The notes under the pieces were generated by a model that did no database searches, was not told the DNA's origin, and saw only the letters and a list, made by a program, of their open reading frames with translations. From Verrucomicrobiales bacterium (GTDB lineage Bacteria; Verrucomicrobiota; Verrucomicrobiia; Verrucomicrobiales; SLCJ01), in the NCBI GenBank assembly GCA_046075565.1, contig JBJTQJ010000040.1, forward strand, positions 25,487-89,486: 64,000 nt of DNA, read 5' to 3'. A program made the position numbers and the translations under genes. Positions 59,009 through 64,000 of this stretch are shown here, one piece after another. Each line of letters starts with the position of its first letter. Within the stretch, counting starts at the first letter, position 1.

Positions 59009-60607
59009 ATGAACTCCGGCACCGCCCATCAACCCCGCTTTTTGCATCGCCTTCCCCTGGACGCGGCTGTAGTATCGCTTTTTCTTGCCGCGGTCCTGCT
59101 CATTGAAACCATCGCAATTCTCGCCCTCAACAACGGGCGGTTCATTTACACCCTCGATGATCCCTATATCCATCTGGCGGTGGCGGAGAATCTCGCGCGG
59201 GCCGGGCATTACGGGGTGAACACGACTGAAGTTTCGTCCCCTTGTTCGAGTGCCCTCTGGCCGTTCTTGCTGGTGCCTTTCGCCGGCCTACCAATTTTTG
59301 AATTCGTGCCGCTTTTCCTCAACATCACGGCGGGATTCGCCACCGCCATTCTTGTGCTTGGGCGGGTGAGGAAATGGATCTCCGCGGAGAGGTCCGATCT
59401 AAAAGGACAGATTTTGAGAGCAGCGGTGGTCGGCGGTTTCCTGCTGGGAACGAACATCATCGGACTCGTCTTTACGGGCATGGAGCACAGCCTTCAGGTT
59501 CTCTTGGCCTTGATGGCGGTGGAGGGCATGCTCAGAATCACCGAGGGCAACCCGCCCGGCGTCTGGTTCGCGGCAGCTCTGATCCTTGGTCCTTGGATCC
59601 GATATGAGAACATGGCCATCACGGCACCCTCCTTGGCATTCTGTTTCCTGCTCGGTCACCGTCGTTTGACTTTCACCGCTGGGTTCACCCTCTGCGCCGG
59701 ATTGTTGCTATTTGGCTTCTATCTGACCCGGCTCGGCTTGGACCCGCTCCCCTCTTCCGTCGCCGCGAAATCCACCCTGGCGGGCGATTCCACCGCCATG
59801 GGCCTCCTGACAAATCTCAAGAACTCCCTCGAATTCGGCCGGGGCATGCTGGTCGCCATCGCCACCTCCCTGCTCGTCGGTTTCGGGCTGGCATGGCGCG
59901 GTCCAAAGCATTGGAGGTGGTTTTGCGTTTCCCTCGCCACCGCCGGATTCCTGCATCTCATCGCCGGTGCCTATGGCTGGCTGCACCGCTACGAAATCTA
60001 CATCCTCGCGGCATTGGCCCTGAGTTTGGCCTCGGTTGTCGCTGCCTTTCTCAATGTCTCCGGCTTTTCCCCTTCGCGGCGGCTCGGTTGGTTGGTATTG
60101 CCTTTGCTGCCGGTGATCGGATTTCCCTATTTAACAGGACTACTGAATCTCCCGCTGGCCGCCAATAACATTTACGAACAACAATTCCAGATGCATTGCT
60201 TCGCAACGAACCATTGGAAAAAACCAGTGGCGGTGAATGACCTCGGCTGGGTCGCTTTCCGCAACCCGGACCATGTGCTCGACCTCTGGGGACTCGCGTC
60301 CCCCGCCGCCCTGAAGGCGCGCTTGGCCGATGCGGATCCGGCATGGATGGAGGCCTTGGCAAACGATCAGAATGTGGAAGTGGTGATGATTTATCGCGAC
60401 TGGTTTCCAAAACTTCCGAAGGATTGGCGCGAAGTGGCCGTTCTCAGGCTCTCCCGAAAATCAATCATCTCCGGGCCGAAGGTAACCTTCTATGCGACCA
60501 AGCCGGAGTCCATCCCGGCCATCCAACGAAGCCTTCTTTCTTTCCAAAACGATCTGCCCCGCCCGGAGATGCTGGAGATCCTGGTCCATCGGCAGACGGA
60601 ACGTTGA
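59009..60607 (+). CDS. Polytopic membrane protein, probable GT-C glycosyltransferase
   Basis: DDPYIH after TM1, GME, many TM helices, DLGW...DLWGL. Confidence 0.7.
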   Translation: MNSGTAHQPRFLHRLPLDAAVVSLFLAAVLLIETIAILALNNGRFIYTLDDPYIHLAVAENLARAGHYGVNTTEVSSPCSSALWPFLLVPFAGLPIFEFVPLFLNITAGFATAILVLGRVRKWISAERSDLKGQILRAAVVGGFLLGTNIIGLVFTGMEHSLQVLLALMAVEGMLRITEGNPPGVWFAAALILGPWIRYENMAITAPSLAFCFLLGHRRLTFTAGFTLCAGLLLFGFYLTRLGLDPLPSSVAAKSTLAGDSTAMGLLTNLKNSLEFGRGMLVAIATSLLVGFGLAWRGPKHWRWFCVSLATAGFLHLIAGAYGWLHRYEIYILAALALSLASVVAAFLNVSGFSPSRRLGWLVLPLLPVIGFPYLTGLLNLPLAANNIYEQQFQMHCFATNHWKKPVAVNDLGWVAFRNPDHVLDLWGLASPAALKARLADADPAWMEALANDQNVEVVMIYRDWFPKLPKDWREVAVLRLSRKSIISGPKVTFYATKPESIPAIQRSLLSFQNDLPRPEMLEILVHRQTER

Positions 60608-60712
60608 TACGAACTTCCGAAATGAGAGCCAGTGATTTCCACCCGTCCGCAAAATTTTCTGTCACATCCGGCCCCGTTTGTGCCAATATCCGGGCAGCCC
60701 CCTGATCAAATC

Positions 60713-61030
60713 ATGAAACTATCCCCAACCCTCTTGAGAAACCTTACAATCACCGCCGGTATCGCCGCCACGCTTTCCACGGCCACCGCCGACGAAAAAG
60801 CGACGCCACCTGCTGGCGGCGCGGAGGCGAAACCCGCACCCAACGATGCCGTCTCACCCGAAGCCCAGGCCTTCTTCCTGCGCCACGACACGAACAAAGA
60901 TGGCAAACTCTCTCTGGAAGAATTCGACAAGGCCTTCGCGGAAATCCGGCAAGCGGCCAAGGTCGCGCCGAGACCGGCTCCGCAAGTGCTTCCTCCAGGA
61001 GACGGCTGCCCGGCCTGCGGCCTGGGATGA
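60713..61030 (+). CDS. Putative MNIO-class RiPP precursor: signal peptide, EF-hand, C-terminal CPACGLG
   Basis: 105 aa; EF loop DTNKDGKLSLEE; C-terminus resembles ChrA CPACGMG; directly upstream of DUF692. Confidence 0.85.
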   Translation: MKLSPTLLRNLTITAGIAATLSTATADEKATPPAGGAEAKPAPNDAVSPEAQAFFLRHDTNKDGKLSLEEFDKAFAEIRQAAKVAPRPAPQVLPPGDGCPACGLG

Positions 61031-61082
61031 GGAGATCCCTCTCCCCCGCGTTTGCCCAACCGCCTGCCTCTTTTCCTAAGTA

Positions 61083-61937
61083 ATGCCTCGCGTCGGCTTG
61101 TCCCTCATGCCGGAGACGGAGTTCCTCGAAGCAGCCCTGCCGCTTTTTGAGGAAGGTCTGGTCGATGCGGTGGAGTGGAGCTACGACACGGCTTGGGCCG
61201 ATGGAACACGCGAGTGGTTGTCCCATCTTATCGAGGAATACTCCGTGGCCGGGCGATTGACCGGACACGGAGTGCATTTTTCGTTGCTTTCCGCCGATTG
61301 GACCCCGCGCCAGCAGGGCTGGTTGGATCGATTCAAGGAAGAAATCCACCGGCACCACTACCTTCACCATACCGAACACTTCGGATTCATGACCGGAGGC
61401 GACTTCCACCGCGGAACGCCCCTTCCCGTCCCCCTCATCGAGAGCACCCTGAAGCTGGGACAAATGCGCTTCGCCCAGCTGGCCGCCATCGCGCCTTGCC
61501 CGATGGGTTTGGAAAATCTCGCCCTGGCCTTGAAAGTGGACGACGCATTACAGCACCACGAGTTCTTGGAAAAAATCCTCGCTCCCTCGGACGGCTTCCT
61601 CCTGCTCGACCTCCACAACATCTACTGCCAACTCTGCAACTTCGACCTCGCGCCCTCCGACCTGCTCGACAATTACCCGTTCCATCGGGTCCGGGAAATC
61701 CACCTCAGCGGAGGGTCGTGGCAATCGACCGGAACAAGCGGCAGGGTCTTGCGGCGCGATACCCACGACGACGACGTGCCGTCCGCTGTTTTCGCATTGC
61801 TGGAATTTGTCCTGCCGCGCTGCCCGAACCTCCAGGTCGTTTTTCTCGAGCGCCTTGGCCACACGCTCCAACCGGAAAGCCACACGGGCTTCCGGCGCGA
61901 TTTTCAAACCATCCGCTCCATTGTCGGCCATGGCTGA
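61083..61937 (+). CDS. DUF692 / multinuclear non-heme iron oxidative enzyme (ChrH-like)
   Basis: HGVHFSL, TEHFGF, GLENL, LLLDLHNIY, EIHLSGG, DTHD, FLER. Confidence 0.9.
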   Translation: MPRVGLSLMPETEFLEAALPLFEEGLVDAVEWSYDTAWADGTREWLSHLIEEYSVAGRLTGHGVHFSLLSADWTPRQQGWLDRFKEEIHRHHYLHHTEHFGFMTGGDFHRGTPLPVPLIESTLKLGQMRFAQLAAIAPCPMGLENLALALKVDDALQHHEFLEKILAPSDGFLLLDLHNIYCQLCNFDLAPSDLLDNYPFHRVREIHLSGGSWQSTGTSGRVLRRDTHDDDVPSAVFALLEFVLPRCPNLQVVFLERLGHTLQPESHTGFRRDFQTIRSIVGHG

Positions 61938-62187
61938 AATTTACCGCGATCCCGCACTCGCCGCCTCCCAGCAGGAAATGCTCGCGCTTTTCCATGTCAG
62001 CCGGACTACGGAGGAATTGTTAGAGAAAATCGCGGCTTCCGGTATCCAGGATGATCTGAAAACATGGCTGCTTTCCTGCGATCCCGACATGTTACAAACC
62101 GCCTGCGAGTTGGTGAGACAATGGGGATCTTTCGACCCCGCCGACGGGGTCGGAGCAGGCTCTTCTTCAGACCACGGTGCTTGTTAG
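61930..62187 (+). CDS. Small putative MNIO partner protein
   Basis: 85 aa, helical; 8-nt overlap with the DUF692 gene; LAASQQEML near the N-terminus. Confidence 0.65.
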   Translation: MAEIYRDPALAASQQEMLALFHVSRTTEELLEKIAASGIQDDLKTWLLSCDPDMLQTACELVRQWGSFDPADGVGAGSSSDHGAC

Positions 62188-62191
62188 CGAA

Positions 62192-64000
62192 TCACGGTGA
62201 GTCGGAGTATTCCACGGCGACACGACCTAAACGTGCGCTTGCTCCAGTGACCGCATCATCGACAATCACCCGTTCCCAATCCGTATCGATGATGGTCGCT
62301 GGAGGTGGAGTCCCGGTTTGCCAGCCACCGGGACCGGCGGCACCGGGATCGGAGCAGAATTGGGGCAGATACGTCAGTCCACTGGGACCGCGACGGCGGA
62401 GGTATTCGATACGAACCCGCCGACTCGCACCTTCGCCGACCACCGTGATCAAAGGCAGCCCGCTGGTTCCTCCGGCGGACATGGCTACGGCGAAAGGAAG
62501 CGGCGGCATGTTGAAGGCATAACAAAGGAGATTCCTCGTACCATCCTGGTTTGCATCTTCAAGTAGCCCATCCAATCCTCCGGGACCGAAGTTCTGGAGC
62601 GCCGCCCAGCCGCTATACCCGCCCGCAGCCGGGCCATAACTAATTGTGACCTCGTGATTGCTGCCCGCGGGGAATTCACTTCCGAGATAGCCACCGGAGC
62701 GGCCCAATCGTCCATAGGCGTCAAACAAGTCAATTTGCAGGTCATAATCGCCTTCAATCATGGCGTTTGTCAGGTTGAAGGTGACCTGATAGGTGCCATT
62801 CAAAGCGGTGCCGGAGGTGCGCTGGGCAGCACCAAAGCCACCCATGCCATAACTGGTCAGGCTAGACCCATTCGTGGTGGAAAGGGAGATCTGCCCGCTC
62901 GTGAAGCCTGAGGCATCATCCGTAATGGTCAGATTGAGGGTCACGGGAACCGGAGTGCTGACATTGGCGAAAGTGGGAAGGCCGGAAAGCGAGACGAGAA
63001 CGGGACCGGTGGAGTCAACCGCACCCGAGTTCGTTAGGTTCACCTGTCCCCCGGATTGCGGGATGAGGAATTTGTCACCGATGATATTCGATCCCGTGGG
63101 TGACCAAGTTCTGAAGCCAGCATGGGAAACATCCACGACCATATTCCAAAGTCCAGGCTCATGCCAGCCCGGCAGTTGGAAGGTGGTCTGGTAGGTGCCA
63201 TTGGTATCCGTGCCTGCGATTCTTGCGGTGCTAGGAATGTAGGAAGATAAGGCCCCGCCCCCGGAGAGACTGGTCGTCGGCGTCAGGTAGGCATTGAGAT
63301 AACTGTCCCCACTGAACGCAGTATCGCTGGCTAGATTGAGTTGGAGGGTGACCGTTTGCGGGCCCGAGGCGACATCGACGATGGAAGGCGTGAGGCTGAA
63401 ACTTGTGATTCGGGCGGCGGGCGGGGCGATGGACTCGAGGGTCAGGCTGAAGTTCCCGCCATTCGTCGTTTCGCCGAAGGCGAAGCCATAAACGGCGATG
63501 TGGTAGGTTGTTCCCGCGGTGGCCTGGAAAACCAGCGGGCCGGGCGCTTGGCTGCCGAACGAAGAATAGTTGTCGCTTCGACCCTGTTCTTGCAAAGAAG
63601 CAACCGTGGAGCCCGTGAACAAAGCAAAAATCGGACGGTTGGATCCGCTGGTGCTGGCGCTGATTCGTGTCCATCCCGTCGCGGACGCCGTCCACTCATA
63701 CCAGACCGATGCTCCGGCCCTGTCGTTCAGGTTTGATTCTCCTGTTTCCAGGGTGCCGTAGACCGTCGATCCGTTGGCGGTGACGGGCAGGGCTGGACCA
63801 AGAGTGATCCGATTGGCAAAGTCATTGTTCGCTGGCGGTGTGGCGGTGTTAACAAAGGTGGTGGTCGCACCCGGCGGCATGCCGCCGGGTGCGGCACCCG
63901 GCGGCAATGACCTTGACTCAATCAGAAGCCCATAATACCAAGCGTTGAAAGTGTTGTCTCTCCGGACAACCTCGATCTCCCGGCTCCCCGGAGAGGGGGA
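62192..64000 (-). CDS. C-terminal part of a large extracellular/surface protein, open to the window edge
   Basis: PPANNDFANR...SVWYEWTA...TYHIAVYG domain; two related Ig-like repeats; YSGWA...DANQDG.NLLCYAF tail; no stop up to 64000. Confidence 0.8.
   Translation of the reverse strand, partial: SPSPGSREIEVVRRDNTFNAWYYGLLIESRSLPPGAAPGGMPPGATTTFVNTATPPANNDFANRITLGPALPVTANGSTVYGTLETGESNLNDRAGASVWYEWTASATGWTRISASTSGSNRPIFALFTGSTVASLQEQGRSDNYSSFGSQAPGPLVFQATAGTTYHIAVYGFAFGETTNGGNFSLTLESIAPPAARITSFSLTPSIVDVASGPQTVTLQLNLASDTAFSGDSYLNAYLTPTTSLSGGGALSSYIPSTARIAGTDTNGTYQTTFQLPGWHEPGLWNMVVDVSHAGFRTWSPTGSNIIGDKFLIPQSGGQVNLTNSGAVDSTGPVLVSLSGLPTFANVSTPVPVTLNLTITDDASGFTSGQISLSTTNGSSLTSYGMGGFGAAQRTSGTALNGTYQVTFNLTNAMIEGDYDLQIDLFDAYGRLGRSGGYLGSEFPAGSNHEVTISYGPAAGGYSGWAALQNFGPGGLDGLLEDANQDGTRNLLCYAFNMPPLPFAVAMSAGGTSGLPLITVVGEGASRRVRIEYLRRRGPSGLTYLPQFCSDPGAAGPGGWQTGTPPPATIIDTDWERVIVDDAVTGASARLGRVAVEYSDSP

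Follow-up and report, generated by a model that had tools for sequence, protein, structure and literature searches.

Three consecutive genes on the forward strand of a 64,000-nucleotide stretch of DNA from a Verrucomicrobiales bacterium (contig JBJTQJ010000040.1; hereafter the window, meaning the whole stretch) raise the question of which modification pathway they encode and what becomes of its product. The genes, at 60713..62187, specify a small protein ending in a two-cysteine motif, a DUF692 enzyme, and an 85-aa open reading frame (ORF). An earlier note on this DNA had read them as a pathway for a ribosomally made peptide that is modified after translation (RiPP), akin to that of ChrA and ChrH from Chryseobacterium. 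We consider it probable that they form a self-contained A-H-Hc cassette (precursor, enzyme core, and separately encoded enzyme domain) in the split (Mel-type) form of the ChrH/DybH subfamily, whose enzymes are multinuclear non-haem iron oxidases (MNIOs). The gene anatomy, the family assignment, the identification of the 85-aa ORF as Hc, and the conservation of the EF-hand and of the motif were computed here, while the chemistry, the need for Hc, and the export are taken from published relatives, and Ca2+ binding and dimerization come from structure prediction alone. The features of the cassette are as follows.

60713..61030, plus strand: precursor gene, a ChrA/MelA-type substrate of 105 aa plus stop (translation, family alignment)
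60713..60790, plus strand: predicted Sec/signal peptidase I (SPase I) signal peptide, residues 1-26, MKLSPTLLRNLTITAGIAATLSTATA, cleavage after A-T-A (hydropathy and conservation)
60857..60964, plus strand: single EF-hand helix-loop-helix, residues 49-84 (Pfam matches, conservation, and helices predicted by AlphaFold2, AF2)
60887-60922, plus strand: putative Ca-binding loop, residues 59-70, DTNKDGKLSLEE
61007..61027, plus strand: core motif CPACGLG, residues 99-105, with the stop codon directly after it
61083..61937, plus strand: MNIO (DUF692) core enzyme, MelH-like, 284 aa, without C-terminal domain (PF05114, MNIO_ChrH)
61930..62187, plus strand: Hc, a separately encoded ChrH C-terminal four-helix domain, MelHc-like, 85 aa (hidden Markov models, hhalign, AF2)

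The MNIO core and the 85-aa ORF

The DUF692 assignment made in the earlier note was borne out, as the 284-aa enzyme scored 114.4 bits (E 7.1e-33) with Pfam PF05114 (MbnB_TglH_ChrH), whose cut-off is 25, and its gene is the sole PF05114 gene in the genome. Among NCBIfam models the best was MNIO_ChrH (NF050165; 336.3 bits, E 2.1e-100, profile positions 2-283 of 363), followed by BufB (93 bits), HvfB (79), and ApyH (41). The C-terminal part of the MNIO_ChrH model is left unmatched because that domain is encoded by a separate gene. A search of 5.8 billion proteins found 46-50% identity, over 99-100% of the length, to Chryseobacterium proteins of 364-365 aa named 'MNIO family chryseobactin maturase', with similar closeness to 370-385-aa proteins of Hymenobacter, Spirosoma, and Puia. 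When the enzyme was aligned with 26 of its best 120 matches (9 of split length, 17 fused), the residues H62, E98, H99, E144, N145, D176, H178, N179, H207, D226, H228, D229, and E256 were invariant. The spacing of H62/H99, D176/H207, and D226/H228 matches that of the DybH iron ligands H65/H102, D179/H210, and D228/H230, which were mutated in that enzyme (PMC13733907). The score of 336 bits, compared with 93 for BufB, and the invariant ligand columns thus uphold the proposal of a ChrH-like pathway acting on a C-terminal CPxCGxG motif. Two points tell in the opposite direction: 336 bits is below the NCBI equivalog cut-off of 600, and the putative correspondence with the DybH ligands was drawn from spacing, DybH not being in the alignment by name. 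By sequence, the enzyme is not an NCBI 'equivalog' of Chryseobacterium ChrH, yet it clearly belongs to the ChrH subfamily.

The enzyme gene starts 52 nt 3' of the precursor stop, and the 85-aa ORF (61930-62187) overlaps its end by 8 nt (ATGGCTGA), an overlap that the earlier note had reported. Judged by this overlap, the ORF is translationally coupled to the enzyme gene. Its product matched no Pfam or NCBIfam family. A small ORF (66-76 aa) also follows the orthologous enzyme in related loci, and we built a hidden Markov model (HMM) from 13 such stand-alone ORFs, that of the window and those of 12 loci. The best 120 enzyme matches comprise 51 of fused length (at least 350 aa) and 69 of split length (at most 320 aa). 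The Hc HMM matched 35 of 121 enzyme sequences, all of them of fused length, over about 60 aa at the extreme C-terminus (approximately residues 310-396), with two extra weak N-terminal stretches (P0063 and P0114); at E <= 1e-3 it matched 31 of the 51 fused enzymes and none of the 69 split-length ones. In the reverse direction, an HMM of the last 85 residues of the 51 fused enzymes matched the 85-aa ORF at E 3.9e-10 over residues 6-66, and hhalign aligned the stand-alone ORFs with the fused tails over 71 columns (98.5% probability, E 3.2e-15).

A locus scan that took one genome per species gave 19 loci, and an Hc domain lies downstream of the enzyme or is fused to it in 18 of them, L030 having none. 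Twelve of these 18 had contributed to the HMM; those outside the training set are L015, L022, L023, L025, L026, and L027, of which L015 is near-identical to the training locus L014. AF2, run on a 13-row alignment, predicted helices at residues 8-23, 27-36, 41-49, and 52-65 of the 85-aa ORF, with a predicted score in the local distance difference test (pLDDT) of 90-95 across the block and disordered ends. A Foldseek search of this model against the PDB gave no match at E <= 0.001 (best E 2.8). Together, these comparisons identify the 85-aa ORF as the C-terminal helical-bundle domain of ChrH-family enzymes, split off as its own gene. In the published Mel system, MelHc is likewise a separate protein in Cyanobacteria/Melainabacteria; MelHc was retrieved with MelH in a pull-down, and the -4 Da change in MelA1 required the two together (PMC13056109).

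The relation of split to fused enzymes was also followed in a FastTree phylogeny (139 rows, first 300 residues, L015 left out as near-identical to L014, midpoint root, Shimodaira-Hasegawa-like supports). The window's enzyme falls within an 11-row clade and a 17-row clade, each with a support of 99, that hold solely enzymes of 280-291 aa. A nested group of 47 rows, with a weak support of 87, unites the fused enzymes of Bacteroidota. The tree agrees with the published idea of a later fusion and is no proof of it. At one Myxococcales locus (L025:2393-5134) a 383-aa protein combines the enzyme with a weakly matching Hc, and a Ser/Thr kinase-Macro domain protein precedes it; no CxxCGxG ORF was found there.

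The precursor, its EF-hand, and its predicted signal peptide

The description of the precursor in the earlier note could be confirmed at 60713-61030: a 105-aa ORF with a signal-like N-terminus, richness in Pro and Ala, an EF-hand loop, and its only two Cys in CPACGLG. The protein ends in GDGCPACGLG, with Cys solely at residues 99 and 102; its predicted mature part holds 11 Pro and 15 Ala among 79 residues, and its C-terminal LysC peptide is VAPRPAPQVLPPGDGCPACGLG. Although the stop-to-stop frame extends back to a GTG at 60632, we placed the start at the ATG at 60713 because homologues begin at the methionine of MKLSP and conservation starts there. The NCBIfam model ChrA_rel_RiPP matched the precursor at E 5.5e-5, below its cut-off, and the motif fits the CPxCGxG consensus of the ChrH subfamily, in which HymA, ending in CPGCGLG, is modified (PMC13056109). 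Across the whole 3.9-Mb genome, which has 70,914 frames of 30 aa or more from stop to stop, this is the one frame with a C..CG.G terminus, and at 17 of the 19 loci (exceptions L020 and L025) an ORF with such a terminus is the immediate upstream neighbor of the orthologous enzyme. The pairing of motif ORF and enzyme therefore exceeds chance, and the conservation of a CPACG-type motif beside orthologous enzymes, on which the earlier note had staked its proposal, was found. We ruled out a lipoprotein (DAG-RiPP) reading of this precursor, as it has no lipobox and no third Cys.

The precursor family was delimited by a large-database search that returned 9 proteins at E <= 0.01, the window's protein included; these and three locus translations make up a 12-row alignment. 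Down to 37% overall identity, M1, K2, A15, G16, A19, F55, D59, N61, K62, D63, G64, K65, L66, E70, F71, A74, I78, C99, P100, C102, G103, and G105 are invariant, so that the EF-hand loop is kept in all 12 members. The loop DTNKDGKLSLEE fits the canonical pattern (D-x-[DNS]-x-[DNS]-G-x-[ILV]-x-x-x-E, 12 residues with a helix on each side) at positions 1, 3, 5, 6, 8, 9, and 12. Pfam EF-hand_5 and EF-hand_1 were found at E <= 0.01 in all 12 aligned precursors, and EF-hand_6 and EF-hand_5 also match the window's protein. In the AF2 model, helices at residues 49-57 and 68-84 flank the loop, and nothing else is defined beyond a helix at residues 5-20 in the N-terminal region. As far as sequence goes, the only metal site that the precursor supports is Ca2+ in the EF-hand.

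A profile of the family run against 1.84 billion representatives returned mostly multi-EF-hand proteins. Among the 150 matches listed, at least 10 further small proteins (106-169 aa) carry one DxNKDGKL loop and a CP[AGL]CG[LMR]G end, which brings to about 20 the sequences that combine the invariant single EF-hand with this terminus. A metagenome scan with the precursor alignment gave at least 5 loci, all of generic EF-hand type at 35-45% identity, and none of the 5 had a C..CG.G-terminal frame. Ahead of the EF-hand, the linker of several relatives (P0128-P0131, P0142, P0168, P0177, and P0270) contains 1-3 additional Cys, for example within GCV or repeated ICE/ICK/ICR; these are too far from the N-terminus to resemble lipoboxes and are absent from the window's protein.

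EF-hands act in pairs, and every member of the precursor family among those listed has one per chain. We modelled two copies of residues 44-90 with 2 Ca, in 3 runs with 3 controls. The homodimer reached an interface score (ipSAE) of 0.56 in all three runs, versus 0.03 for the best control, with a contact agreement of at least 94% and a partner pLDDT of 78; the calibration mark for this score is reached by 20 of 30 solved homo-pairs and by 1 of 23 single chains. The two chains come closest at L66-L66, which is the position-8 bridge typical of paired EF-hand loops. From these models we infer that the precursor may bind Ca2+ and dimerize.

Several points speak against this picture of the precursor. 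With Pfam EF-hand_1 the window's protein reached 22.9 bits (E 5.5e-5), just short of the gathering score, which is 25.4, and the monomer fold of the whole precursor is of low confidence (mean pLDDT 55). The dimer may have passed because the many solved EF-hand pairs were already familiar to the model, and the run used a custom alignment and a ligand, unlike the calibration. The signal peptide was judged by eye and by hydropathy, and its h-region is Thr/Ala-rich and moderately hydrophobic.

Some of these points would suit a different role for the segment, as a recognition or leader element for H/Hc or as a folding aid, rather than as a Ca2+ site. Conserved recognition helices are frequent in RiPP precursors, and the sub-threshold Pfam scores and weak monomer model would fit such an element. 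However, we found the Ca-ligand positions 1, 3, 5, and 12 of the loop, together with Gly6 and Leu8, to be invariant in 12 of 12 precursors while the flanks vary, and precursors from Prosthecobacter, Gemmataceae, and Myxococcota keep the motif without the EF-hand segment. Recognition moreover rests on the minimal C-terminal motif, according to PMC13056109. We regard this alternative as unlikely and retain the EF-hand as a putative Ca2+ site. Since precursors beside more distant enzymes lack it, the EF-hand is a cargo feature of one clade.

Those more distant precursors vary in other respects too. Two loci of Prosthecobacter/Akkermansiaceae type (L017:3-419 and L018:3403-3975) hold two tandem precursor genes without EF-hand, with the ends CPGCGMG, CEGCGRG, CAGCGLG, and CPPCGRG, and these variable ends indicate that the Pro and Ala positions of the motif are tolerant. 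Precursors at L019, L022, and L027 (Gemmataceae, Myxococcota) carry a lipobox-like LSGC or LAGC after a hydrophobic stretch, so split enzymes outside Bacteroidota probably also go together with lipidation of the DAG-RiPP type. At an Obscuribacteraceae locus (L020:3476-3952), the ORF directly upstream of the enzyme ends in SMGCGMG, without the motif's first Cys; should this ORF be a substrate, it would be unable to form a macrocycle.

The N-terminus of the window's precursor has K2 and R9 followed by a hydrophobic stretch (maximum Kyte-Doolittle value, 11-residue frame, 1.77 at residues 11-21), and A24-T25-A26 precede D27. An [AV]-x-A ahead of an acidic or Lys residue is kept in the closest homologues. 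We infer that residues 1-26 are a Sec/SPase I signal peptide cleaved near A26/D27, and this SPase I-like N-terminus, with the conserved loop, supports the earlier suggestion of a small, probably Sec-exported substrate carrying an EF-hand. The Thr/Ala-rich h-region and the MKLxxxLL start common to precursors across phyla could also be those of a RiPP leader, with a product that stays in the cell or exits by another route. This is less likely still, given the SPase I layout of a positive n-region, a hydrophobic core of about 11 residues, and [AV]-x-A before a charged residue, and given the lipobox-like LxGC found at the same place in the related precursors of L019, L022, and L027. The published lipidation of DybA and the signal peptidase I (SPI) signals predicted for ChrA and MelA1 (PMC13056109), and the finding that no locus contains a dedicated transporter or protease, likewise favor a Sec signal.

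Distribution, neighborhood, and known relatives

The cassette is found across a wide range of identities to the window's. Loci at 71-74% belong to Rubritalea profundi, three metagenome-assembled genomes (MAGs) of Akkermansiaceae, and one MAG labelled Vicinamibacteria; those at 55% to a Prosthecobacter MAG and an Akkermansiaceae MAG; and those at 39-52% to Gemmataceae, Obscuribacteraceae, Pirellulaceae, Myxococcota, and one MAG labelled Alphaproteobacteria. Each locus examined has its own set of flanking genes (sulfatase, SASA esterase, aldo-keto reductase, Y-family polymerase, DUF2330, PSCyt proteins, and others), which indicates that the three genes A, H, and Hc are the unit. No protease, transporter, or methyltransferase is clustered with the cassette in the window or in the flanks of related loci, in keeping with what had been noticed earlier. 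The cassettes of the MAG labelled Vicinamibacteria (L013, an 8.3-kb contig) and of Rubritalea profundi (L012) are nearly identical, with enzyme branch lengths of 0.025 and 0.023 and a precursor and Hc only a few residues apart; by sequence, the L013 contig may be a mis-binned verrucomicrobial one, or the cassette may have been transferred very recently.

The host lies outside Bacteroidota, as previously proposed: a YmdB-type housekeeping protein of the window has among its named best matches, at 70-72% identity, Haloferula luteola, Luteolibacter, Akkermansiaceae, and 'Verrucomicrobia bacterium'. None of 60 relatives of the same family or order had a ChrH-level enzyme match, nine of these genomes scoring 43-67 bits, values typical of other MNIO types, and none of 400 further genomes sampled across the phylum had an enzyme match at E <= 1e-50. 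The cassette is thus rare in Verrucomicrobiota. This sporadic distribution might be expected of a decaying or silent acquisition without current function, but we consider that very unlikely, as none of the three frames is broken and their starts are coupled, the ligand columns show no variation, and both loop and motif persist in an 85%-identical precursor that accompanies a 94%-identical enzyme. The GC content of the cassette, 60.2% against a genome mean of 59.6%, stands at the 61st percentile of the genome and so gives no signal of transfer or recent arrival.

A convergent ORF of at least 571 aa with DUF7035/DUF7743 repeats lies at 62192-64000 on the minus strand and runs off the window; its stop is 4 nt from that of the 85-aa ORF, which leaves no room for a terminator of the cassette's own on either strand. 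A promoter scan of 60300-62500 found no promoter-like sites, and a terminator scan of the same interval gave 2 overlapping minus-strand sites inside the precursor gene, no excess over shuffled sequences (mean 2.2). Sequencing runs listed as carrying the cassette numbered 8, from 5 studies, all of DNA or unknown type and none of RNA; the best were freshwater metagenomes from one study, which may be where the window's DNA came from. On the same strand, 105 nt upstream of the cassette, a 532-aa polytopic membrane protein is encoded at 59009-60607 (plus strand), without a Pfam or NCBIfam family. An ESM Atlas structure search placed it with the cluster 'Glycosyltransferase RgtA/B/C/D-like' (TM 0.91), and a feature match pointed also to a cluster in which 38% of members bear PMT_2; these models give a lead toward a GT-C type glycosyltransferase. 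The protein was not seen beside the cassette in related loci.

Among described systems, MelA1/MelH/MelHc from a Melainabacteria MAG (PMC13056109) has the same layout: its precursor bears an SPI signal and a CPxCGxG end, its MNIO core measures about 285-300 aa, and its Hc is separate. Like the window's cassette, it has no ChrI, protease, transporter, or methyltransferase in the published description. The Obscuribacteraceae locus L020 is related to the Mel system and shows the same H/Hc split; the window's enzyme is 47% identical to that Obscuribacteraceae enzyme and lies in a separate clade, the 11-row one. MelA1 is a folded dimeric protein of 34 kDa, whereas the window's precursor would have about 79 aa after cleavage and one EF-hand. 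The host (Verrucomicrobiota) and the motif (CPACGLG, not CPACGMG) differ as well.

The chryseobasin system of Chryseobacterium, ChrA/ChrH(/ChrI) (PMC10214503), provides the best NCBIfam model and 46-50% identity in the MNIO core, and ChrA shares the C-terminal two-Cys motif and an SPI-type signal. In contrast to the split genes of the window, ChrH is a fusion of core and helical bundle (363-365 aa), the cluster further encodes ChrI (DUF1772), an epimerase, and an M42 peptidase, none of which is in the window's cassette, and the ChrA product is S-methylated (+10 Da). The DAG-RiPPs DybA/DybH and HymA/HymH of Bacteroidota (PMC13056109, PMC13733907) belong to the same reaction family, yielding a -4 Da macrocycle and hydantoin with a free thiol, and the HymA end CPGCGLG is the motif of most EF-hand relatives found. 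Their precursors have a lipobox Cys, leading to lipoproteins, and their enzymes are fused, unlike the window's precursor without a third Cys. The EF-hand MNIO substrates of the Leprevost survey are alike in joining a Cys-containing core to EF-hand domains. According to the survey, they belong to a different MNIO clade (bufferin/oxazolin type, with DUF2063 partners), have an N-terminal EGKCG core after a transmembrane helix, and carry two EF-hand_5 domains fused to Buf_EGKCG, whereas the window's precursor has one EF-hand upstream of a C-terminal ChrA-type core.

To the suggestion in the earlier note that the 85-aa ORF is a ChrI-like partner, working with the MNIO as ChrI does with ChrH, we give practically no weight and consider it refuted for homology: the ORF does directly follow the MNIO gene, the usual position of a partner gene (PMC12452194), and a need for ChrI was reported in the original ChrH paper (PMC10214503), yet ChrI is a DUF1772/Anthrone_oxy integral membrane protein (PMC10214503) later shown to be dispensable (PMC13056109), whereas the 85-aa ORF has no such Pfam match, has a maximum hydropathy of 0.76, is predicted to be a soluble four-helix bundle, and is homologous to the fused ChrH tails, in a genome (100% complete by marker genes) without any PF08592 match.

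The broad claims of the earlier note were also less new than it held. PMC13056109 (PNAS, March 2026) already describes ChrH-type enzymes in other phyla, split H/Hc enzymes, SPI-secreted folded protein substrates, and the modification of folded proteins without protease, transporter, or methyltransferase, and the cassette reveals no new kind of system. The main text of that paper, as far as available, names Cyanobacteriota, Myxococcota, and Planctomycetota and has 0 occurrences of 'Verrucomicrobi', 'EF-hand', and 'calcium'. A full-text literature search for MNIO with Verrucomicrobiota found nothing, though supplementary tables may list such members; a search for MNIO, RiPP, and EF-hand found solely the Leprevost survey, in its two versions, with the same proviso. 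A literature match for DUF692 and Verrucomicrobia (PMC8692599) was set aside as not relevant, as it concerns gammaproteobacterial DUF692/DUF2063 clusters. The Verrucomicrobiota host lineage and the EF-hand precursor subfamily were thus not found in print, although supplementary tables may list them.

A proposed pathway and its meaning

By analogy with these relatives, the precursor would be made with an N-terminal Sec signal, and the active enzyme, assembled in the cytoplasm, would consist of the 284-aa MNIO core plus the 85-aa Hc. H and Hc would then perform an O2-dependent four-electron oxidation of the C-terminal CPACGLG, following the published route from a thioaldehyde at the second Cys through a hydantoin to a macrocycle closed by the first Cys (PMC13733907). 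In the window's precursor, the thiol of C102 would be oxidized to a thioaldehyde, a hydantoin would form with the following backbone amides, and C99 would close the macrocycle, with a net mass shift of -4 Da; S-methylation (+14) may occur as well. The modified protein would be exported via Sec and cut by signal peptidase I near A26/D27. Outside the cytoplasm, the dimer model suggests that the single EF-hand could bind Ca2+ and pair with a second copy, which would result in a small dimer presenting two modified tails on Pro-rich linkers.

A bolder proposal, which we put forward tentatively and hold to be possible rather than probable, is that the EF-hand precursors are an undescribed class of ChrH-type product, unfolded in the low-Ca2+ cytoplasm and converted by Ca2+ into an exported homodimer with two thiol-bearing macrocycle-hydantoin tails. 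An unfolded state in the low-Ca2+ cytoplasm would suit both the maturase and Sec.

For the family, these loci extend the split H/Hc form to Verrucomicrobiota, Planctomycetota, and Myxococcota, where the main texts of the literature, in the parts available, have it solely in Cyanobacteria/Melainabacteria. Rubritalea profundi is a cultured organism with an orthologous cassette. PMC13056109 states that no physiological role is known for the C-terminal macrocycle-hydantoin of ChrH/DybH type, and here a single invariant EF-hand, a recognizable functional module, is attached to that modification. Its presence suggests the study of Ca2+ dependence, dimerization, and extracytoplasmic location. If the proposal holds, a Ca2+-switched dimer would be the first functional handle on a modification without a known biological role.

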